A stretch of DNA of 64,000 nucleotides from a virus (IMGVR_UViG_3300011337_000444:6383-70382), one strand, 5' to 3'; shown: positions 1 through 63,045, numbered from the stretch's first letter. Program-made: numbers and translations. The notes: generated from the letters alone by a model not told the origin.

Positions 1-130
1 GAATAAAAATTTTATTGGGATTGAGAATAATATTGATTATTTTAATATTTCTTTAAAGAGGGTGGAAGAAAAAAGAAAAGAAAAAGATTTTAACGTAGTA
101 ACTTCATTCGGAGATGGAATGTAGTATTAC

Positions 131-167
131 TGCTAACATTATATTACCGCAATTCAATTTTTTGCAC
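131..167 (+). repeat. Cassette-array end site, copy 1 (CTAAC-A-N-TATATTACCG-N-AATTCAA-W4-TTGCAC)
   Basis: 30/35 identity to 61677..61711; related copy on the minus strand at 50679..50716. Confidence 0.7.
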
Positions 168-29405: not shown

Positions 29406-29663
29406 TTATATCATTTTATTAATTGTGTAACCTACTCCACTCACCGCAAATCCATACAAAATACTCATTTGTATTCCAACCCCACAAAACAAAGATAGCA
29501 AAACTCCACAATATAAACCAACACATTGAGGACAACTTATAAAAATTCCTAGTTTCATTGAGTATCCTGTTATTCGCTCTCTAATCAACTTAAATATATT
29601 GCCCTTAGTTATTATCATAGTTAATCCATAACCTGATAACAGTATCAAAAATAGCGTTTTCAT
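29406..29663 (-). CDS. DUF1360-like small membrane protein with CxxC
   Basis: IFKLIRERI...FISCPQCVGLYCG flanked by TM segments. Confidence 0.65.
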   Translation of the reverse strand: MKTLFLILLSGYGLTMIITKGNIFKLIRERITGYSMKLGIFISCPQCVGLYCGVLLSLFCGVGIQMSILYGFAVSGVGYTINKMI

Positions 29664-32600
29664 TACTTATTTGTTCTTTGTGAAATAGCGTAATTTAATC
29701 CTAATTGATACACAATTTCCTTGCGCTTTGAATTAGTTATTAATTTAACTAAGAAACTTCTATCTCTCATTGCATCACCATTGATTTTAGGAAACTCCTC
29801 ATTAACACTATTCATATCCCTCCAAACTTGTGAGTAATATGCGTTTTCTTTACCGTTAAATACTAATCCTTCTAAATCTTCATCTAAGAAATCATCTAAT
29901 GTATTGTTTGTTTCCTGTCCGTTTAACGTTTCAATAATTACATCAAATGGACTTGTAGTGTAAAGTACAATAGATTTTAATATCTTACTTGATTCAGGCA
30001 TAGTGTTAAACGGTACCCATAACTCACTCTTATTCGGAATACCATAGAATACAGAATGATTATCGTTTTGATCGTGTAGGAATAACTGTCCATTTTTAAA
30101 TGAAACAATATTCAACCCTACTGAACACATATACTCTGGCGTAAATGAATAGAAACTTGTCCAATGCTTTGTTGTTTCACTAAACGCTAAAGTTATTGGT
30201 TTTATATCCACATCTACCTTTCTTTCGTATGCAGGTAATATTGGTGTTGCAGATAATATGTACTCACCAGTTGTTATACTTCTCTCTACTGTTATATCAG
30301 CTTCGTAGCCTGTTTCGTTTTTAGCTAATTGTGCATCAAACACAATCGTTGAACTACCTTCTATTAATTGAGTTTCATACACAATTGAGCCGAAGTTTAT
30401 ATTCCCAACAACAGGAGGTATAAATAATGTTCTGTTTAACCCACCAAATGCAACTACCAATTCATCATAACCTACATCGTAAGTTGTAAATATAGTTGGT
30501 ACCAATTCTTGTGATAAATACTCCTTAAACTTATCCTCAAAAAACTCCTCCATTTTAATATCGGAAATAAGCGTAATTCCATCCGTACTTAATCTACATA
30601 CAGCACCTCTTCTGTAATCAACAAAGTATCTTCTGTTTCCGTAGTAAGAAAAACTTTCAGGGTGTAATCCAATTCCATATTCGCCTGAATAATAAATCAT
30701 TTTACTTAATACCTTCTCACTTGCAGCAACTTGTCCTTGCGCAAATTGGTCAAATATTACATTTTCCTCCACTAAAATCTGCCCTACTTTTAATTCTTGA
30801 TAACACTCTAATCGCTTATCTATTGAAGCTAACCTTTGAATACTTCCGTACTTTCTATCATACTGCTCAAAGTTCTCATCAAAGAAACTGTTTAAACCAT
30901 TAATACCTGATTCTGGAATAAACCTTTGCGAATAGTAAATTGTAGTTGGTCGCCTTAATTGTTTAATATCCATATTAACAATATTTGGTCGCCCTGTGTC
31001 TGCTGTGATAAAATTTCTATTCACAAAATCATTTACGTAATTACTCTCTACATATTCATTCTTAAATAAAGTATCCGTTATAGGCATATTACGTTTAAAC
31101 AAATATGTATCTCCAGAATTAAACTTCACTATTGCAGGTTCCGTATCAGTTTGGTTTTGTTCATTACCTAAATGTAAACCATTCTCTATATCGTAAAACT
31201 CTCCAATCTCAAAAAAGAAGTTATTTTCTAAATCTTTAACCGGTGTGTATATCTCAAATAAATCACCACCACCACTTGTTAATGTAGGTAAGTTAAACTC
31301 ATTACGTAAAGTTATTATTCCTGTACCTATATCGTAATTCAATATCTCTAAATCAAATCTCTGTGTAAAAGGAAACCCATTTGCAGCTTTGATAAATCTT
31401 AATCTATCTCCCTTAGTAAATGTATAAACTAATTCACTTCCCTTGTTTATCTCATTGTATCCGTTTACAATGTTATCGATATTTATCTCAATTGTGTATC
31501 CATCATTACTTGATGTTACATCATCTGAAATAGTTTTGTATGTAGTTGATTTTGAAATAAATTGAATATAGTTTCTAAACGTTAACTTCTTTGTTCGTAC
31601 CCATGCGTAATGTGTAGCCCAACTTGGTGCCTTATGGTAAATGTAACCACTTACTACTGGTACCGAACTAAACGCATCAACTAATGGCGTGTTTAACGAT
31701 TGTAAACCTAGCTTTACCTTATCTGTGAAAAATGGTATATCTAACTTCAACTTATCAATAGTGTTTACAGCTCCGCTTCTATTCGCTCTATCAAAATAAA
31801 CTATACCAAATTCATAGCTTGTTCCTCGCTTTAAAAAACTTTTTCCTAAACCAAAGGTTGTTGTAGCAATTATACTGCCTAAATCTAATCCTATGTTTAC
31901 ATTATAAATTTTAACTAATGGGTCATTATTAACACCAAAATACATTAATACAGATGGATTAGTTAAAATATTATTTATTACAGTAGAAATAATTTTAGAA
32001 TTACCTTGGTATGCGTATAATGGTGAATTAAATAAATTTGTAGGTACATTAAATACAGTTGAAAAAAACGAATTAGCATAAACAATTATATCAAAATACC
32101 CACTGCTATCAGTTGTTTGCGTATCACCTGTTGATGTAACAATAGTCATGTTTACAACTGGATTACCGTTTGTATCAACTATTCTGCCTGTAATATTTGA
32201 TTTAGATGTGGCTAAAGCACTTTTATTTTTTACCTGCGCTAACAATCTTAAACCGTCATTATCAGTTGAAAATATTTGATTAACTTCTTCTAAATTAGTT
32301 AATTCTGATTTGTAAAAAACAACAGGAGTAATAAATGAACCTTGTCTTATATTTAAAAATGATTCGACTTTTGTAGGGATATAAAAAAATCCATTATGAT
32401 CTGTAAAAAACCAGCACTCTTGTCTTAATCCACCAGAAGGAGAAGGTCGTCTTACACCAAAATAACCTTTTAAATAATTTCTAGACGCGGTATAATTACC
32501 TAAATGACCAAAAAAATCACCTATATAATCAATCCTGCTATAAGGTATTCTTTGTTGACTTCTGACATCATTTGTTGTATTATATATATTAACTTCATTA

Positions 32601-34408
32601 TCATGTAGATAACCAAATGAAATAGTGTTATTTATATTCATTTCTTTTGTACCAATAGCTGTAAGTCTTATATCAGCATAAGAAATATCAGCTATCTCTG
32701 TAATAGGTAATTGTTTTATTTCTTCATTTTCTACTTTTACTCTACATTCTGCACCATCAACACCTCCTGTTCTTATAGAAAATGTAGAAGTTCTTTCATA
32801 CGGTTTACTAATATCATCGTATTCCGCTTTTGTTGTTAAATGACTAGCAACCCTTAAAACATATTCCCCATCAGGAACTCCTTTAATTTCAAAATCACTT
32901 AATATAAGTTCTTCTTCCATTAACTGAACAATGGTGTTTGTGTTTTGCTTACTTAAGAAAAATATATTATTTGAATCCTGCGAATTTAACAACCTCCTTT
33001 GTTTAGAAACTGTTTTAAAATTAGTACCTGCTAAATAAACCACAAACCCTCCTAAAGGTATAGGATTATAATATAACCCCCTTTGTAAATAGCTTAATTC
33101 ATTAGAAGGTGAATTACCTGGGGCAACACATGAAAATGCTGTGCTTACACCTCCGAAATAAGGTATAGAATCTCCTCCTGCACCATTTAAAAATCTTATC
33201 GGTTGGCAATTCTCAAATACAGAAGAATTAAAAGACTCTTTACCTACTGCGGCTGCACCGTATGTTCCTAAAGTACCGCTAGGCATATTATTTATATTAC
33301 GAATAATAATACTACCCTTTATAGTATTAAGTTTCTTATTTTCCTCCGCATCCTCAAAATTCTCATATCCAACAGATAAATCAGCGTTTACTTTTACGTT
33401 GTTATAATCCTCTACAATATCTCCATACACAATTCGATTACCCTCAATCAATGATTGTGTTCCTGCTAATATAGGTAATCTATCAAATGGCTTAATTGAA
33501 TCTCTTAAATCAGCAATTGAGTAATTACCATCATTGTAAAAATTATATAAATAATCTCCTACTGTATTAGTTTCATATTCGCCTATTAACTTATCCGAAA
33601 TAACAATAAAATCAGATACCTCATTTGGTCTAGCTACTATCTCTAAACGCTTTACTAATTTACCTCCTGATGGAATAATAATCTGTATAGCGTTATTGAA
33701 TTGATTAGTAGTTTGAATGTACGCAGTATTGCTTATAGTCTGTTTGGATATTGGACTATACGCACTCTTCTCGTTATCATCATATACATACCTTGCTTTA
33801 AATTGCCATAGTTCGTTTTTGAAGTAGTTTACATCAAATTGTGCATCCGTAAAATATCTACTTACTGGAGGAAATAATGGTGGGTATTTAACAGCATCTA
33901 TAACATCTAATGTAATAGGTAAATCATACTTATCACCTACTAATCCTGTGTTGAATGTTCTAATCGCTTTACCAATATTAAACTTCCTTGGTGGATTCAA
34001 CCTATCAACAAAATAAATTAATTGATTCTCGTTATCTAAATCAACTATATCAACGTGCGTAATTAAATAATCCTTGCTAAAGTTTAACAACTCGCTTATC
34101 ATTACAGTAACACTACGCTCTTGTAAAAAGTTATACTGAACAATATTATGGTTTCCTAAACTGTTATGGTTAAAGTAATACACAATACTATCTCTCTTAT
34201 ATTCATAAGCACCAATAGTTGTATTTACTCCCTTTGGTAAATCAATTTTTCTTATCTCATTACCCTTAACTAATTCAACTGAATTTCTATTCTCACCATC
34301 ACTTGAACCAATCCTTACATTTACAGCTTTTCGGCAGTAACCGTTTACTACATCACGCTCATCGGTATCTGTATCCATACCGAATATAACTCTTCTATTT
34401 TCTATCAT
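29663..34408 (-). CDS. Tail stabilisation/muzzle protein (P22 gp10 / crAss muzzle-like)
   Basis: N-terminal GMDTDTDERDV..GYCRKAVNVR; YEFGIVYFDRANRSGAV; C-terminal YYSGEYGIGLHPESF and LAFSETTKHWTSFYSF. Confidence 0.8.
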   Translation of the reverse strand: MIENRRVIFGMDTDTDERDVVNGYCRKAVNVRIGSSDGENRNSVELVKGNEIRKIDLPKGVNTTIGAYEYKRDSIVYYFNHNSLGNHNIVQYNFLQERSVTVMISELLNFSKDYLITHVDIVDLDNENQLIYFVDRLNPPRKFNIGKAIRTFNTGLVGDKYDLPITLDVIDAVKYPPLFPPVSRYFTDAQFDVNYFKNELWQFKARYVYDDNEKSAYSPISKQTISNTAYIQTTNQFNNAIQIIIPSGGKLVKRLEIVARPNEVSDFIVISDKLIGEYETNTVGDYLYNFYNDGNYSIADLRDSIKPFDRLPILAGTQSLIEGNRIVYGDIVEDYNNVKVNADLSVGYENFEDAEENKKLNTIKGSIIIRNINNMPSGTLGTYGAAAVGKESFNSSVFENCQPIRFLNGAGGDSIPYFGGVSTAFSCVAPGNSPSNELSYLQRGLYYNPIPLGGFVVYLAGTNFKTVSKQRRLLNSQDSNNIFFLSKQNTNTIVQLMEEELILSDFEIKGVPDGEYVLRVASHLTTKAEYDDISKPYERTSTFSIRTGGVDGAECRVKVENEEIKQLPITEIADISYADIRLTAIGTKEMNINNTISFGYLHDNEVNIYNTTNDVRSQQRIPYSRIDYIGDFFGHLGNYTASRNYLKGYFGVRRPSPSGGLRQECWFFTDHNGFFYIPTKVESFLNIRQGSFITPVVFYKSELTNLEEVNQIFSTDNDGLRLLAQVKNKSALATSKSNITGRIVDTNGNPVVNMTIVTSTGDTQTTDSSGYFDIIVYANSFFSTVFNVPTNLFNSPLYAYQGNSKIISTVINNILTNPSVLMYFGVNNDPLVKIYNVNIGLDLGSIIATTTFGLGKSFLKRGTSYEFGIVYFDRANRSGAVNTIDKLKLDIPFFTDKVKLGLQSLNTPLVDAFSSVPVVSGYIYHKAPSWATHYAWVRTKKLTFRNYIQFISKSTTYKTISDDVTSSNDGYTIEINIDNIVNGYNEINKGSELVYTFTKGDRLRFIKAANGFPFTQRFDLEILNYDIGTGIITLRNEFNLPTLTSGGGDLFEIYTPVKDLENNFFFEIGEFYDIENGLHLGNEQNQTDTEPAIVKFNSGDTYLFKRNMPITDTLFKNEYVESNYVNDFVNRNFITADTGRPNIVNMDIKQLRRPTTIYYSQRFIPESGINGLNSFFDENFEQYDRKYGSIQRLASIDKRLECYQELKVGQILVEENVIFDQFAQGQVAASEKVLSKMIYYSGEYGIGLHPESFSYYGNRRYFVDYRRGAVCRLSTDGITLISDIKMEEFFEDKFKEYLSQELVPTIFTTYDVGYDELVVAFGGLNRTLFIPPVVGNINFGSIVYETQLIEGSSTIVFDAQLAKNETGYEADITVERSITTGEYILSATPILPAYERKVDVDIKPITLAFSETTKHWTSFYSFTPEYMCSVGLNIVSFKNGQLFLHDQNDNHSVFYGIPNKSELWVPFNTMPESSKILKSIVLYTTSPFDVIIETLNGQETNNTLDDFLDEDLEGLVFNGKENAYYSQVWRDMNSVNEEFPKINGDAMRDRSFLVKLITNSKRKEIVYQLGLNYAISQRTNK

Positions 34409-53695: not shown

Positions 53696-53726
53696 ATTCG
53701 CCCTTTTATTTAGTTTAACATACCCA

Positions 53727-53758
53727 CAAAGCTAATCATTATATCTCTCAATCACAAA
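53727..53758 (-). promoter_or_regulatory. Leftward sigma70 promoter (-33 TTTG, 20-nt spacer, -7 TAGCTTTG)
   Basis: Full Bacteroidota consensus, 32 nt upstream of 53695. Confidence 0.7.
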
Positions 53759-53763
53759 AAAAA

Positions 53764-53920
53764 CTTGTATCCATACGGTGGAACAATGAGACTAACCTAC
53801 TGTAAATCAATTATATAAAAAATTGTGCCTCCTCACTTTTTTTACACCATTATCGCCCCTACCTCTACATCCCAGTAAATACGTTATCACACACCAAAAA
53901 TCTTGTATCCATACGGTGGA
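53764..53920. repeat. Two perfect 19-bp direct repeats CTTGTATCCATACGGTGGA
   Basis: Copies at 53764..53782 and 53902..53920, each containing TCCA-N5-TGGA dyad symmetry. Confidence 0.85.
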
Positions 53921-53987
53921 GAAAGTTGACTTTACCATTGATTATCAAATACTTACAAAATCACACCTAAATTTATTTTCAACTTTA

Positions 53988-54019
53988 TTTGCACATATTA
54001 TCCCCCATACATACCTTTG
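53988..54019 (+). promoter_or_regulatory. Rightward sigma70 promoter (-33 TTTG, 20-nt spacer, -7 TACCTTTG)
   Basis: Full consensus; no ORF until 54599. Confidence 0.6.
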
Positions 54020-54121
54020 TAATCGATAATTCACTAATTTATTAACCAAAACAATAAAGTTCTTTAACTTATTTATTTGCACACACAACAACGATTTATA
54101 TCGCTATACCTCCATATAAAT

Positions 54122-54320
54122 CCCACTACACCACAGCAAATACACCCCATCCCTAAACCGGGTACCCCCTATTTATAAATTGGATTTATTTTATCGGGGA
54201 GCTGAAAAGCCCAGTGTTTACAAGGAAAATGTACTGTGGATGTATAGGGTGGGGGTTATGTGGTGGGGTGGGGTGGGTTGATCCGCGCATGGGAAACGCA
54301 AATCGCTGACTGGGTAGGGG
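54122..54320. other. Mirror C-rich/G-rich tracts with G-quadruplex potential; candidate origin or genome-end/packaging region
   Basis: C-runs 54122..54169, GGGTACCC palindrome 54160..54167, G-runs 54247..54277 and 54291..54320, at the strand switch. Confidence 0.5.
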
Positions 54321-54446
54321 TTAAATTAATTTCCGAACTGTTTTAAGCTACTGATTTATAACGGTTTAGATTTGCGCCAACTACTTTTTTTGTAGGCTTT
54401 TTTTTACCTGCATCGAACCGTGGTGGTAAATTATTCCACCTTTTTT

Positions 54447-54492
54447 ACGCGCGCGAATATATAACCACGCGCATATACGCGCATACGCGCAC
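54447..54492. repeat. Four ACGCGC repeats
   Basis: Starts at 54447, 54467, 54477 and 54485. Confidence 0.75.
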
Positions 54493-54598
54493 GATTATTA
54501 ATCGAGTGATATATAACCATTGGCGAAATATCAAACGTTTGGCACGTGCGAAATAAATAGGCTTAATCCCTTTATTGTCTATCTATCTTTATTAACTT

Positions 54599-54952
54599 AT
54601 GGGCTTTGATAAAGATTTAACGGGAAAATTCGCAATTAAATATAGTAAATCGCATTGCATCCAATTACATAAACACTTAACAGAAAAGCGCATAAGTAAA
54701 TCGCATCTTTGTTTTATTCTCGATGTATCAGCAACAGAAACAGCAACACGATTAATAAACACTCCGTATAAACTTACTTTACAGCAATTAATTAATTTAT
54801 CTTTTGCCCTTAATCTTTCTTTAGCTGATTTAGTATTGGTTATTACGGAAGATTTTAAAAATTGTGCATCAACCTTTGATCCTGATTTAATTAATTTTGT
54901 TCCGCCTCATTTACGAGAACTAACTAAATCTAATGAATGGTTTGATCGTTAA
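54599..54952 (+). CDS. XRE/Cro-like HTH regulator
   Basis: ISKSHLCFILDVSATETATRLINTPYKLTLQQLINLSFALNLSLADLV. Confidence 0.65.
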   Translation: MGFDKDLTGKFAIKYSKSHCIQLHKHLTEKRISKSHLCFILDVSATETATRLINTPYKLTLQQLINLSFALNLSLADLVLVITEDFKNCASTFDPDLINFVPPHLRELTKSNEWFDR

Positions 54953-55214: not shown

Positions 55215-55652
55215 ATGAAAAATCAAACAAAAGTAATCAGTAACATTAATGCAAATAAAAACCTTTTAAAAAGCATTAATCAATCATTTTACGGTAATGA
55301 TTTAAACGAAAAAATACAAATGTTTATTGACAATGCAAATAGGTACATTAAAGCAATTGAGGAAAAGCGCGTCTTTTGTATCATTTATAAAGTATCTGCA
55401 AGCGGAATGAGTAGAAATTTAGCCTTTTTTGAACATAGTTTTAACGCTAAGTATAAACAAGGCAATATATATAATTTTCATTGCTTGTTTAAATCTTTTG
55501 GATATACAGAAGCTAGAGAAGGTTTTAGGATTAACGGTTGCGGAATGAATATGGTATTCCATACTAATTATAGTATTATACATCAATTGAATAGTTTGGG
55601 CTTTAATATGAATTGTCCAGTCTTAGCACAAAGCACGCCTTCAACTTTTTAA
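55215..55652 (+). CDS. Conserved phage early protein of unknown function
   Basis: KVSASGMSR...INGCGMNMVF pattern. Confidence 0.7.
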   Translation: MKNQTKVISNINANKNLLKSINQSFYGNDLNEKIQMFIDNANRYIKAIEEKRVFCIIYKVSASGMSRNLAFFEHSFNAKYKQGNIYNFHCLFKSFGYTEAREGFRINGCGMNMVFHTNYSIIHQLNSLGFNMNCPVLAQSTPSTF

Positions 55653-59428: not shown

Positions 59429-59505
59429 TAGAAACTGTTTACTTATATGCAATACTAGTTATTGTGTGGGTAAATTGTGTATCAATCTTTAAGAAAAAAT
59501 AAGCT

Positions 59506-59796
59506 ATGGAAAATTATCAGGAATACAAAAAGATAAAAGGCGAAATTGATGCAGTACTGGATACTTTGCATGATCGACTTAATTCATTCCCTAAATCTAG
59601 TTTAGGTGGTGTAACAGATGAAGTTAGAAAAACGCCTGAATATATAGAAACTAAAAGGCAATGGAATAAATACTGGTCCTTGTTAAGATCCATTAATCAA
59701 ATTGGCGTGAAAAAGTTTAAAAAGGAAATCCAAAAGGAATACCAAGATAAAATAAATGCTGCCAATAAAAAACACAAAGAAAATTTAATAAAATAA
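59506..59796 (+). CDS. Hypothetical early protein
   Basis: LNSFPKSSLGGVTDEVRKTPEY pattern. Confidence 0.7.
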   Translation: MENYQEYKKIKGEIDAVLDTLHDRLNSFPKSSLGGVTDEVRKTPEYIETKRQWNKYWSLLRSINQIGVKKFKKEIQKEYQDKINAANKKHKENLIK

Positions 59797-59797
59797 C

Positions 59798-60010
59798 ATG
59801 GCTACACAATTAGACTACGTGGTGGAACTAGAAAAGCAAACAAAAATACTAAGTAGGCTAAGGATTGAAAAGGAACAATACATTAACGCCCCTAAATACG
59901 TTCGTAATTCAAATGAATATATCCTGTTCATGCTAGAATACCAACGAACATTTTTTAAGGTGGCACAGATAAAAAAAATACTTAAAAATAAATATGGGTA
60001 TGAAGAGTAA
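59798..60010 (+). CDS. Hypothetical early protein
   Basis: 70 aa, coupled to the previous ORF. Confidence 0.6.
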   Translation: MATQLDYVVELEKQTKILSRLRIEKEQYINAPKYVRNSNEYILFMLEYQRTFFKVAQIKKILKNKYGYEE

Positions 60011-60104
60011 AATTGTGCATCAACCTTACACAAATTTTATCAACATAGTATATATTTACTAGATTTATTGTATATATTTACACACAATTTTAAACTTTAA
60101 TTTT

Positions 60105-60239
60105 ATGTCAAACACAAAAAATAGAACACTTATCTACCTGGATGAGGAAATGAAGAAAAAAGCTAAACAAAAATCTAAAGAAATTTTAGGAAAAGAAAAC
60201 CTTAGCGCATTAATTACTTACCTTATAAATAAATTGTAA
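60105..60239 (+). CDS. Ribbon-helix-helix DNA-binding protein (not in the ORF track)
   Basis: MSNTKNRTLIYLDEEMKKKAKQKSKEILGKENLSALITYLINKL: strand-helix-turn-helix pattern. Confidence 0.7.
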   Translation: MSNTKNRTLIYLDEEMKKKAKQKSKEILGKENLSALITYLINKL

Positions 60240-60267
60240 TCATTAATAAAAAAAATAACAAAAAAAA

Positions 60268-60579
60268 ATGAAAGTACAAATAAAAATCAACTACGCAGAA
60301 GCAACAAAAGGACAAATTTTTGAAGTAGTAGAAATTCAAGGCAAAAGAGTAACCGTAAATATTAACGGTAGAAATGTAGATTTTGGATTTAGTGAGGTGC
60401 AAATAGTTGCACCCACTAATTCTGACCTTTTTAATTTAGGGCGTGAACTTTTAATGATGGGGTCAAAATCACTGCAAGGGTGGAGAGAAAACGATGTAAC
60501 AAACTTTATATCAGAAATAAATTTACCAATGTCAAAATCAATGATGCGTAAATCAATAAATAATGCAGTATGGGGTTAA
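60268..60579 (+). CDS. Hypothetical protein with an SH3/KOW-like N-terminus
   Basis: KGQIFEVVEIQGKRVTVNINGRNVDFGFSEV. Confidence 0.65.
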   Translation: MKVQIKINYAEATKGQIFEVVEIQGKRVTVNINGRNVDFGFSEVQIVAPTNSDLFNLGRELLMMGSKSLQGWRENDVTNFISEINLPMSKSMMRKSINNAVWG

Positions 60580-60734
60580 TTAAAAAAACAAGGGGAGGCA
60601 CTCGGCAAGGGTTGGGTGCTAAACCTAAATATAATGAAGAAACTAAAACGGTTTCTTTTCGCTGTCCAGTGTCAAAAGTTGAAGAACTGAAAATTATTGT
60701 AAAGTCTAAACTTTCGGAGTGGTCGGTAAAATAG
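60570..60734 (+). CDS. Small DNA-binding protein, GGxRxG basic arm plus RHH-like part (not in the ORF track)
   Basis: MGLIKKTRGGTRQGLGAKPKYNEETKTVSFRCPVSKVEELKIIVKSKLSEWSVK. Confidence 0.7.
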   Translation: MGLIKKTRGGTRQGLGAKPKYNEETKTVSFRCPVSKVEELKIIVKSKLSEWSVK

Positions 60735-60735
60735 C

Positions 60736-60870
60736 AGCTAACATAAAAGTATAAAAGCAGGTGGGGGATTGAACGCCTAACACATTCCGACTTGCACAAA
60801 CGATAATAAACTGGCGAAGTGGTTAAAATTAGCACATAACCCCCACTTGATTTTATACATTGTTGTGTGC
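60736..60870 (+). mobile_element. attC-like hairpin site (135 bp)
   Basis: AGCTAAC ... GTATAAAAGCAGGTGGGGG / CCCCCACTTGATTTTATAC ... GTTGTGTGC. Confidence 0.6.
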
Positions 60871-60879
60871 AGTTATTTT

Positions 60880-61131
60880 ATGAATTGGAGAGATATAAGT
60901 AAGGTTGGACTGCCTTTAGACAACAATAAAAGTTATTTGGTTACGGATGGCAAAGAGTGCTCGACAACCAACATTAATGTTAGAAAAAATTACAACACAG
61001 GCGAATCAACATTTTTACGTTGGACTGGAGATGAAAACACCTACGAAGATAATCAATGTTGTAGTGGGACACCTATGTTTGATTTAGTGCCTACACATTG
61101 GATACCAACGGACGAGATTCCTTTGCCATAA
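60880..61131 (+). CDS. DUF551-like hypothetical protein (cassette-like)
   Basis: MNWRDISKVGLP...PTHWIP; ATG at 60880 follows the core-like site. Confidence 0.65.
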   Translation: MNWRDISKVGLPLDNNKSYLVTDGKECSTTNINVRKNYNTGESTFLRWTGDENTYEDNQCCSGTPMFDLVPTHWIPTDEIPLP

Positions 61132-61239
61132 TTGCGCATTAATTACTTACCTGATTAATAAATTGTAATGGTTTCGGCTTGGCGAAGGCTGGGATTAGAA
61201 GCACAAATTTTTAAAATAAAAAAAATAACAAAAGGAATT

Positions 61240-61428
61240 ATGACAAATCAACAGCAAAAAAACTTATTCGTTGGTGCAAACGAACAGCAATTATTGAAAA
61301 TCAAAAAACAAGATGATATTGAAAAAACATATATGGAATTTGTAAGAGCAAATCCTAATTTGTCAATGGAAGAATATGAAGCTAAATATAAATCATTAAA
61401 CTCGGCTATTATTTTTACAAATTGTTAG
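61240..61428 (+). CDS. Small hypothetical protein reading into an attC-like right arm
   Basis: ATG at 61240; the stop TAG lies inside GTTAGGC. Confidence 0.55.
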   Translation: MTNQQQKNLFVGANEQQLLKIKKQDDIEKTYMEFVRANPNLSMEEYEAKYKSLNSAIIFTNC

Positions 61429-61440
61429 GCAACGTAATTT

Positions 61441-61680
61441 ATGAAACTATACAATGTTGAAGTAGAAGCCAGTTACGAAACATCATACGAGGGCGAAATA
61501 AACACAAGTTATACAAGGTTAGTTTTTGCTGATACTGAAAAAGAAGCTATTGACTTTGTAAATGCAGGATTAAAACACTTAGATAAGGTTTGGCATATAT
61601 ACGAAAAAGCAAAAACGGCATACGAGGTAGATGCTACAAAAGGAGAACGTAAAAGGAAAGCTCAATTTTATGTTGCCTAA
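61441..61680 (+). CDS. Hypothetical protein in a cassette bounded by inverted core sites
   Basis: GTTAGGCAACGT upstream and ATGTTGCCTAAC downstream; the stop TAA lies inside GCCTAAC. Confidence 0.75.
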   Translation: MKLYNVEVEASYETSYEGEINTSYTRLVFADTEKEAIDFVNAGLKHLDKVWHIYEKAKTAYEVDATKGERKRKAQFYVA

Positions 61681-61711
61681 CAGTATATTACCGAAATTCA
61701 AAATATTGCAC
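61675..61711 (+). repeat. Cassette-array end site, copy 3
   Basis: GCCTAAC AGTATATTACCGAAATTCAAAATATTGCAC. Confidence 0.7.
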
Positions 61712-61728
61712 TAAACTATTTAAACGTA

Positions 61729-61754
61729 AAAAGGGAGGTTTTATCCTCCCTTTT
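61729..61754 (+). terminator. Intrinsic terminator
   Basis: AAAAGGGAGG/CCTCCCTTTT. Confidence 0.75.
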
Positions 61755-61987
61755 GGCTTTTAGCAAACAAAAAAAACAACCTCAAAATTATATATGGAAA
61801 ACTTGAGCAATTTAAAGTGGTATTTAAGCGGTGCGCACATCTTAAAGATGTTGCCAGATTCGGCTCTCTGCCACCGCTTATTTACCTTTTTATCCAGCTT
61901 TGCGAACAAGACAATACAAAGTTATTGCTTTTTTCTATATCTGCAAATTATTTACAATAAAGATTTCATTAAAAGCAAATTATTTTT

Positions 61988-61995
61988 TATATTTG
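61988..61995 (+). promoter_or_regulatory. Bacteroidota sigma70 -7 element
   Basis: TATATTTG, 28 nt upstream of 62023. Confidence 0.55.
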
Positions 61996-62022
61996 TAACT
62001 TATAATTAACAGCTTTGCTCTA

Positions 62023-63045
62023 ATGAATAACACTAATCTAAAAATTAAAGCCTTTCCAGAATTAACTAAACAGTTGTTTGAGAACAACTTAGTTAAGGAA
62101 TATCTTTTTTTTGGAGTTTGGAAAAAAGTTCATTCATCAATGTTTAATTATAAATCAGAACTAGGAGTAGCAAAAATGACAGCAATAATGGGTTGCAGTA
62201 CTTCAACTACTCATAGGATGATAAAAAAACTTTTCGCTCTTGGTTGGGTTACAGAAGATAAAAATGGAAAGGATCTTAGATTCGTTTCTAATAAAAAGCT
62301 GTTTGCACAATTTGGACTGAAAGAAAATCAATACGGTAATAACATTCACTATGTAGGTAAAAATACATGGGTTGCAATGTTCTCTACTATCGCTAACCAA
62401 AACTTAGAACAACAGGGATATAAATTTATCCAAAAAATTGATTACATCGGCAAAGATTTAACGAAAATTATTAAAGCAAATAAACCTGCTGGTTTAGATG
62501 TTTTACATAATGAGCGCAATGTAAAAACTTTTGGGAAAAATTCTGATATTACTGTTTCTAGGGCAGGTGTTTCTAAAATGATTAACAAATCTTCTGCTAC
62601 ATCCGGAACCAACGCACTTAAAAAATGTAAGGAAATGGCTTTATTAGTAAAAGATAATGTTCGCATGGTTAAAATATCTGATAGTGGCGATAGAAACTGC
62701 TTAAACGCTTTAGATAGTTCTGCTTTTATTAATGGAAGAGGCGAATTATGGATGCAACTACCTAATGAGGTAGAATTTGCTTCTGTAAGCGACTATAACA
62801 ATAATGTTGGGGTATTAGTATCAAAGGTAAAGAAAAACGCTAATGTGGGTTTTAAATATAACGCTTCCTTTAATGAGAATATGTTAGAATTATTTGCTAA
62901 TATGGATCAAAGAACAAGTGAATATAGTTATTACTCACAAAGAGATTTTAATTTAAATAAATGTAAGAAGGAATTTACTATTATTAATAAGAGTAATCCT
63001 TTATACGATATTTATATCAATAAATCTCTAGCGAATAAAAACTAA
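62023..63045 (+). CDS. Protein with two winged-HTH-like segments (Rep/initiator-like)
   Basis: KMTAIMGCSTSTTHRMIKKLFALGWV and TVSRAGVSKMINKSSATSGTNALKKCKEMALL. Confidence 0.5.
   Translation: MNNTNLKIKAFPELTKQLFENNLVKEYLFFGVWKKVHSSMFNYKSELGVAKMTAIMGCSTSTTHRMIKKLFALGWVTEDKNGKDLRFVSNKKLFAQFGLKENQYGNNIHYVGKNTWVAMFSTIANQNLEQQGYKFIQKIDYIGKDLTKIIKANKPAGLDVLHNERNVKTFGKNSDITVSRAGVSKMINKSSATSGTNALKKCKEMALLVKDNVRMVKISDSGDRNCLNALDSSAFINGRGELWMQLPNEVEFASVSDYNNNVGVLVSKVKKNANVGFKYNASFNENMLELFANMDQRTSEYSYYSQRDFNLNKCKKEFTIINKSNPLYDIYINKSLANKN

Follow-up and report, generated by a model that had tools for sequence, protein, structure and literature searches.

It is an open question how virulent phages acquire small counter-defence genes and change their order, and site-specific cassettes would be a mechanism beyond mosaicism. 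The question arose here from a 64,000-nt stretch of phage DNA (the window, bases 6383-70382 of a 70,382-nt IMG/VR virus record), in which an initial annotation had described integron-cassette-like genes and hairpins between 60736 and 61711. Are these small genes mobile cassettes, and if so, of what kind? Our best explanation, taken as a whole and including a mechanism that we infer, is that the window carries a decayed short row of mobile gene cassettes, from a family common in freshwater Bacteroidota phages; we consider this probable, with considerable room left for being wrong.

The phage is crAss-like and of virulent type, and its 1581-aa protein (29663..34408) matches the crassvirus muzzle protein. 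DNA of the window is present in river, freshwater and drinking-water sequencing runs, and contigs that carry a conserved 54-aa gene of the locus were binned with Chitinophagaceae, Flavobacterium and Ferruginibacter. Two relatives, L002 and L003 (99% and 56% identical at the neighbouring 340-aa protein), have one gene of ~200 aa in place of window positions 60241-61708, and the window's small genes and hairpins were found nowhere in their genomes. No match to GenBank phages was obtained by blastn with 59500-62500 or by tblastn with the 54-aa protein. Over the same 59500-62500 segment, Rfam 15 (at gathering thresholds and also at E up to 10) returned only chance-level matches (E 0.4-8), none of them for the hairpin. 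No tRNA genes were found.

Several other features of the window and its relatives were observed. A Pistol self-cleaving ribozyme (RF02679; 55653-55729, + strand, 60.3 bits against a gathering score of 34.5) lies directly 3' of the ORF 55215..55652. A gap of ~900 nt without a long ORF (53700-54600), between divergent gene blocks, holds the window's most stable local fold (54141-54290, + strand, -54.2 kcal/mol), which lies under the GC trend by 4.6 sd. Another fold is on the - strand (54401-54550), and the gap has no Rfam match. Two further relatives, L021 and L022, differ by ~15% per 100 nt just upstream of 59870-62600 yet are 100% identical across that block, which, on sequence grounds, looks like a recently exchanged segment; because of this identity they were uninformative as co-variation evidence. 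At the homologous locus, the genome of L003 (L131) has no hairpin, and a gene lies between 24-nt direct repeats (GGTTATTGGAATTAAGGATACAC.., 2139-2162 and 2466-2489), a repeat that we label a PeSL-like linker.

The window hairpin and its family

The initial annotation had pointed to a 135-bp imperfect hairpin running from AGCTAAC (60736-60742) to GTTGTGT (60862-60868), and this structure is real: the arms of the inverted repeat (60727-60767 and 60840-60880) are 41 nt long and 78% complementary, and the RNA fold (-42.2 kcal/mol) has a z-score of -3.95, with none of 200 shuffles as good; the DNA fold reaches z -2.3. The inner stem (60749-60767 with 60840-60858), correctly given as 18 of 19 paired, consists of 17 Watson-Crick pairs, one G.T and one G.A. 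The whole site (60732..60873, + strand) is made up of a left box, TAACA (60739-60743), the stems around a 72-nt loop without ATG, TGTTG (60861-60865) and a right box TGTGCAG (60866-60872). No U-tract follows the hairpin on its 3' side. An 18-mer of the hairpin top had a sole match, to an unrelated coding region of L004, and the 30-mer of the X16 junction was absent from IMG/VR.

At other loci the 54-aa gene is likewise followed by TAG-CAGC-TAACG and a long hairpin that closes with TGTTA, and the stem sequence is specific to each locus. We built a covariance model (R1) from 16 sites downstream of the 54-aa gene. The window hairpin is one of these seeds, so its own score (89.9 bits, E 5.5e-19 on the + strand, 5.2 bits on the - strand) is partly obtained by construction; two other copies discussed below, the cut-down copy at 61177-61282 and the one at G000:5548-5623, were left out of the seed. 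With default filters R1 misses the window's own hairpin, and all window searches were therefore run with filters off. Within the window, R1 found nothing besides 60732-60873 and 61177-61282 under these settings. In 71 other loci it found 116 sites, with few exceptions on the gene strand and frequently arranged in rows, between small genes of freshwater Bacteroidota phages; five phage records held arrays of 38, 20, 13, 13 and 12 copies (81 matches with filters off). The window hairpin is one of a large family.

The structure co-varies across the 116 matches: paired cells made up 89.5%, whereas shuffles reached 67% and slid partners 36-51%, and we counted 684 double changes, with four pair types at many stem positions. 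These counts come from alignments fitted to R1 and are thereby biased towards pairing. Such family-wide co-variation and arrays already contradict ordinary phage mosaicism, in which a chance hairpin or terminator would happen to sit beside chance GTT/AAC matches, a reading that we find scarcely credible. The base of the hairpin is TAACG/TGTTA in 83 of 111 sites, AAC and GTT being near-invariant. Mismatches of the G.U type outnumber A.C by 467:47 (104:47 without four near-fixed G.U pairs), and the gene-sense strand is the strand that folds.

Loop lengths fall at ~0, 36 and 72 nt. The ATG of the next ORF lies inside the loop at about half of the sites, and upstream stop codons occupy fixed places in the hairpin base, including the TAA of TAAC. 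The loop is probably also a portable, A-rich translation start. We also observed that loops, for example at window positions 60768-60839, contain an AGCACnAAA-like motif two or three times; together with the clustering at ~36 and 72 nt, these copies suggest a repeated protein-binding unit. Conservation of the right arm as a peptide was ruled out: the reading frames through it were distributed 31/29/20, and since no frame is conserved, the conservation is at the nucleotide level.

These properties also suit an explanation without any site-specific movement, in which the hairpins act in RNA (in mRNA processing or stability, or as insulated translation starts) and the genes are shuffled only by homologous or microhomology recombination, like the PeSLs of T4. 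We regard this as improbable, though serious enough to be weighed at each step. A gene-sense folding strand fits RNA as well as single-stranded DNA, and ATGs in loops and stops at fixed base positions are what insulated translation starts would show. Against it, members without a loop exist, the right-arm frame is not conserved, a U-tract is lacking, and no promoter matched (Bacteroidota-type promoters were outside the scan).

The cassette unit

The relation between neighbouring sites revealed the unit. The right box, the 7 nt after TGTTA, was complementary to the left box before the next TAAC at 5.88 of 7 positions (n=68), and a second set, taken mostly from other arrays, gave 5.97 of 7 (n=65, 52 of them with at least 6). 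Controls remained lower, at 3.76-3.96 for boxes of the same site, 3.94 when one site was skipped and 3.93-4.04 for random pairs. Since each right box pairs with the next left box, each unit has self-complementary ends. In integron cassettes, self-complementary ends are the classical sign of circular permutations of one site.

Complementary ends would also be expected if a transposase mobilised each gene in double-stranded form, as a small transposon bounded by terminal inverted repeats of 12 bp (TGTTA + box, box + TAACA) and with the hairpin bodies as preferred targets, and surveys of MITEs do report many elements in Bacteroidota phages (PMC11602168). We give this possibility very little weight: mismatches between boxes were G.T rather than A.C at 21:2, a bias that a double-stranded site does not favour, TAAC is the sole target duplication, the hairpin body moves with the gene, and no transposase, Y1_Tnp included, was found. 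The pairing bears on RNA action as well, which would have each ORF closed by a 12-bp long-range helix (TGTTA and right box with left box and TAACG). Selection is unlikely to favour a helix of 7 + 5 bp that must bridge 200-1400 nt of RNA under translation, yet pairing of the boxes is no weaker across 1.2 kb.

The borders of the unit were read from pairs of sites that share only part of their sequence. For the same hairpin body, the left box differed while the right box was the same in 45 pairs, and the reverse was seen in 1; hairpin and downstream gene were shared in 59 pairs, upstream gene and hairpin in 1. The left edge of shared blocks falls on the T of TAACG within 2 nt, and an array opens with a hairpin body directly behind a conserved TAACG and closes with TAAC alone. 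From these asymmetries and block edges we derive a cassette that reads body-TGTTA-box-ORF-box-TAAC, with the crossover on the AAC side. As judged from these comparisons, the hairpin belongs to the downstream gene, and the polarity is mirrored relative to the integron. Exchange at scattered homology, on which the RNA-based explanation depends, would not be expected to produce the 45:1 asymmetry or the exact duplication of TAAC at inserts. Hairpin bodies are nevertheless mosaic and were separated from the downstream gene in ~60% of pairs, which means that homologous exchange acts too; such hybrid bodies, with crossovers within elements, are a point in favour of the RNA-based explanation.

Among 120 cassette ORFs elsewhere, 21 encode N6_N4 methyltransferases; the others include D12, C5, MT-A70 and Dam methylases and one each of Mom, Tad2-like, YopX and HNH endonuclease proteins, among others. 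The window's own cassette genes had no family match: Pfam and PHROGs gave no function for its small genes, only phrog_6696, itself of unknown function.

The decayed row in the window

The window's own row is decayed, with one whole site and two cut-down ones. Read with the rule derived above, and on the + strand throughout, it would comprise four cassettes. The first would consist of a 103-aa gene (60268..60579) and the 54-aa gene (60570..60734), which overlap; it would end in TAGCAGC-TAAC and would have lost its own hairpin. The 103-aa gene replaces a partner gene of 53-67 aa found elsewhere; it has no family match, and a pattern scan found no relative in IMG/VR. The left box TAGCAGC (60732-60738) begins with the stop codon of the 54-aa gene (TAG, 60732-60734) and is followed by TAAC (60739-60742). 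This gene is highly conserved (at least 221 clusters at 76-90% amino acid identity) and changes by codon position as coding sequence does (0.105/0.047/0.225). The modelled protein has a basic arm, a beta-hairpin and one helix (pLDDT 73), and a fold search with this model returned no match; it is possibly a nucleic-acid binder. We observed 22 invariant residues across 31 diverse copies (RGG..GAKPKY..TKT..FRCP..EW..K), and the partner gene of 53-67 aa overlaps and precedes the 54-aa gene outside the window. Four Logan contigs from different samples all stop exactly at 60731, the end of the 54-aa gene, as expected if co-occurring phages share this gene and diverge after TAAC.

The second cassette would be formed by the hairpin (60743-60872) at its head and an 83-aa gene (60880..61131) as its cargo. 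This gene has 36 relatives, and homologues align only over 60878-61138. The 3' box is cut after TTGC (61132-61135), at 61136, where the second copy of a direct repeat, D1, starts. In L010, the end of the 83-aa gene (TTGCACA-CAAC) pairs with the right box and TGTTG of the window's hairpin at 12 of 12 positions, one of them a wobble.

The third cassette would be headed by a cut-down element (61166..61283) with TAATG in place of TAACG, a left arm at 61171-61193 that fits the family consensus, and a decayed right arm; R1 matches 61177-61282 of this element with 20.1 bits (E 0.003). What had been described as an orphan arm at 61166..61193 is thus the left arm of this element. The 62-aa ORF that it would carry (61240..61428) starts at the ATG in the loop (61240), or is 86 aa long if read from the ATG at 61168, and its stop codon TAG lies in the next GTTAGG.

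The fourth cassette would consist of the relic of a right arm (61413..61434), a 79-aa gene (61441..61680, or to 61681 with TAAC) and intact boxes. The relic includes TGTTA (61423-61427) and the right box GGCAACG (61428-61434), forms the 5' end of the cassette and accounts for the second orphan arm, which had been placed at about 61400..61430. The full hairpin is retained in L124 (1293-1433, 37.4 bits) with the same 79-aa gene, and homology between L124 and the window extends from 61413 to exactly 61681. At the other end lie the left box TGTTGCC (61671-61677) and TAAC (61678-61681), and the two boxes pair 7/7 with one T.G, so that the cassette ends are intact and self-complementary. The 11/12 inverted match noticed around this gene (GTTAGGCAACGT at 61424-61435 against ATGTTGCCTAAC at 61670-61681), with the stop codon TAA (61678-61680) inside the TAAC of GCCTAAC, is real. 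Taken by itself it is near chance, as mosaicism would have it (14 kb contain 60 matches of 11/12 at 150-400 nt spacing, against 23-39 in shuffles), but it fits the family's box rule exactly, and it is the box complementarity across the family that chance matches fail to explain.

A flank of ~30 nt (61682..61710) closes the row. It is missing in L002, and the same sequence stands after the TAAC of another cassette, at window positions 138-167. The end of this other cassette (127..137, + strand) has a left box TTACTGC followed by TAAC; its start is outside the window, with a short-loop copy of the hairpin just before it (G000:5548-5623, 26.5 bits) and a right box GCAGTAG that pairs 7/7 with TTACTGC. 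Beyond the row, a terminator-like hairpin with a T run (61729..61761, + strand) is common to L002 and L003 and marks the conserved border of the variable region.

The initial annotation had proposed to compare relatives for gain or loss at the junctions, and close relatives do show exact gain, loss and replacement at TAAC. This genome and that of L002 are 96-97% identical on both sides of a site filled by unrelated cassettes of 953 and 349 nt, and the homology ends at TAACG and restarts at TAAC. In sequencing runs we compared variant contigs with the window, excluding as evidence any stretch without contig cover. One contig matches the window as far as 61681 (..GCCTAAC), beyond which it has G, a bulge and then a left arm of the family type; in another of the same run, ..TGGGGCA leads into TAAC (61678), where it rejoins the window. 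The pair can be read as extra cassette DNA placed exactly behind GCCTAAC, but this is not proof, since no physical link connects the two contigs. Mosaicism alone does not account for cassette replacement at TAAC.

Two borders in the window did not conform: they do not lie at TAAC and were produced by ordinary recombination, at microhomology or between copies of a 36-nt direct repeat. The repeat, D1, has a first copy at 60205..60240, the 3' end of a 44-aa gene (60105..60239), and a second at 61134..61169 (both + strand), a relic of that gene's end that is 94% identical to the first and 100% identical to L002:5075-5112. Contigs from three other studies, among them those of the run just described, join 60204 to 61134 inside D1, a 929-nt indel, and are without the hairpin and the genes of 103, 54 and 83 aa. 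A joint inside D1 indicates plain homologous recombination, and this indel is as the mosaic and the RNA-based explanations would both have it. Later recombination of this ordinary type has cut two sites of the row and duplicated the 36-nt gene end.

The family, its hairpin structure, the self-complementary ends, the sharp TAAC borders and the natural gain, loss and replacement of cassettes are thus demonstrated, and the unit that the initial annotation had recognized, an ORF between a GTT box and an AAC box that includes the stop codon, with hairpin sites, is a true one, as attested by co-variation, arrays, complementary ends, and gain and loss at TAAC.

Enzyme, mechanism and known systems

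A single-strand site-specific mechanism and its enzyme are inferred: no circles were seen and no enzyme was shown to act on the sites. No integrase had been noticed in the window, and indeed the whole genome contains no match to PF00589, the tyrosine recombinase family, nor a Y1 transposase (Y1_Tnp). It does encode a 216-aa serine recombinase (PF00239, 110 bits; G000:4907..5557, L112) that ends 826 nt before the window's first base, whose stop codon is the TAA of the TAAC core ahead of the short-loop hairpin at G000:5548-5623, and which is conserved in the genome of L002. Among the five array-rich records, all incomplete, no serine recombinase or resolvase was found in any, and no tyrosine recombinase in three. 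Two of these records, G006 and G007, encode a Xer-like tyrosine recombinase in or beside the array, which scores 151-155 bits against a cut-off of 265 for TIGR02249 and remains under every curated cut-off; the alignment to TIGR02249 falls in two pieces that skip about positions 205-239, so the IntI-specific segment is absent. No recombinase was common to the element-bearing phages among the genomes examined.

We propose that a cassette, read on the gene strand, would start with G, a 4-nt bulge and the long imperfect hairpin, followed by TGTTA, the 7-nt right box, the ORF, the 7-nt left box and TAAC. Closed as a circle, it would bring boxes, TAACG/TGTTA and stems together into one continuous hairpin; the joint of this genome's other cassette (ending at 127..137), for instance, would read TTACTGC-TAAC-GGTTACAGC, that is left box, TAAC, G and its own hairpin body. 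The folded gene-sense single strand would be the recombination site, cut beside TAAC, with the topology of a folded attC bottom strand (5'-..AA|C .. GTT..-3') but the genes would lie on the strand that folds. A cassette would be excised and could then be inserted after any TAAC core. Candidate enzymes would be the Xer-like tyrosine recombinase beside two large arrays, a host Xer, or the serine recombinase next to the other cassette. Whether Bacteroidota phages carry, in this sense, a mirror-image integron, with hairpin-headed cassettes, a gene-strand fold, a cut beside TAAC by an enzyme other than IntI and a loop that serves as translation start, strikes us as an evenly poised question. If they do, this route would allow virulent phages to gather genes against restriction and other defences and to change their order, possibly trading them with host arrays. 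The system offers experimental handles: a 4-nt junction, a folded site that can be tested, candidate recombinases, and natural filled and empty sites.

A side observation concerns the ends of rows. The same ~30-nt flank follows the last TAAC at both cassette loci here (138-167 and 61682-61710), and in Polaribacter phage P12002L an unrelated flank of ~70 nt follows the last TAAC of both rows (L132 29165-29260 and 37190-37320, - strand) and corresponds to the published site attC2. The end flank may be an attI-like end site.

This phage brings us to the published work closest to ours. Qi et al. 2023 (PMC9892861) described CALINs in virulent phages, and noted methyltransferase cargo too. In their assays IntI1 recombined P12002L attC2 at G|TT, and P12002L_attC1 was the one site that it did not recombine, no recombinants being obtained. 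We found that P12002L_attC1 is, letter for letter, a family hairpin between two methyltransferase genes of P12002L, that R1 detects a further family member in this phage, and that attC2, taken from the opposite strand, is the flank that follows the final TAAC in both P12002L rows. Qi et al. 2023 treated the sites as ordinary attC sites, whereas we see mirrored cassettes; the present system may explain the failure of P12002L_attC1 with IntI1. In the open-access literature we saw neither the box rule nor the mirrored polarity nor the large arrays described, and PMC9892861 reports none of these and does not describe the spread in Bacteroidota phages.

Two other phage systems offer partial parallels. 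CTX phage attP resembles the family in that a folded phage single strand is the substrate of a Xer-type tyrosine recombinase (XerCD), but there the whole phage integrates at dif and no cassette arrays are built. Among phage systems, the PeSLs of T4-like phages (PMC2839356, PMC4122927) come closest to gene shuffling at intergenic stem-loop repeats, and they provide the precedent for the RNA-based explanation: they too are repeated in hyperplastic early regions, mediate the swapping of small accessory genes and can yield mini-circles. PeSLs, however, contain a sigma-70 promoter and a terminator and recombine through direct-repeat homology, whereas our family has no promoter or terminator signature within the limits of that scan and has long co-varying hairpins, a junction core of 4-5 nt and self-complementary ends. 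Only the D1 indel is PeSL-like, and in mechanism only.

The closest likeness is with integron cassettes, attC sites and CALINs, which the initial annotation had invoked. Both consist of rows of one-gene units separated by imperfect hairpins of 60-145 nt that are conserved in structure and not in sequence; in both, the hairpin base has AAC and GTT cores, and the AAC core often includes a stop codon; in both, the two ends of a unit are complementary, which is what a circular intermediate would predict, the fold is better on one strand, and one cassette can be found behind different neighbours. The layout and the complementary ends thus bear out the comparison, and other parts of it do not hold. 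The phage family has no IntI, and the Xer-like enzymes beside two arrays lack the IntI insertion. An integron attC stands 3' of its own ORF and is crossed over at G|TT, whereas the phage hairpin moves together with the ORF downstream of it, and the crossover maps to the AAC side. The strand that folds in integrons is the bottom strand, antisense to the ORFs, and in the phage family it is the gene strand. The ATG is often in the loop, and loop length is quantised at ~36 or 72 nt. The setting, a virulent-type crAss-like phage, differs as well. The comparison of cores is less decisive: they fit RYYYAAC/GTTRRRY only with one deviation, as in the window, where AGCTAAC and GTTGTGT are each one position off the consensus. 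Altogether, the family is integron-like and not an integron; the window adds a decayed member to the system, and the mirror-image layout is the variant. It widens the integron concept to sites in which polarity, folding strand and enzyme differ, and in which the site probably doubles as an expression signal.
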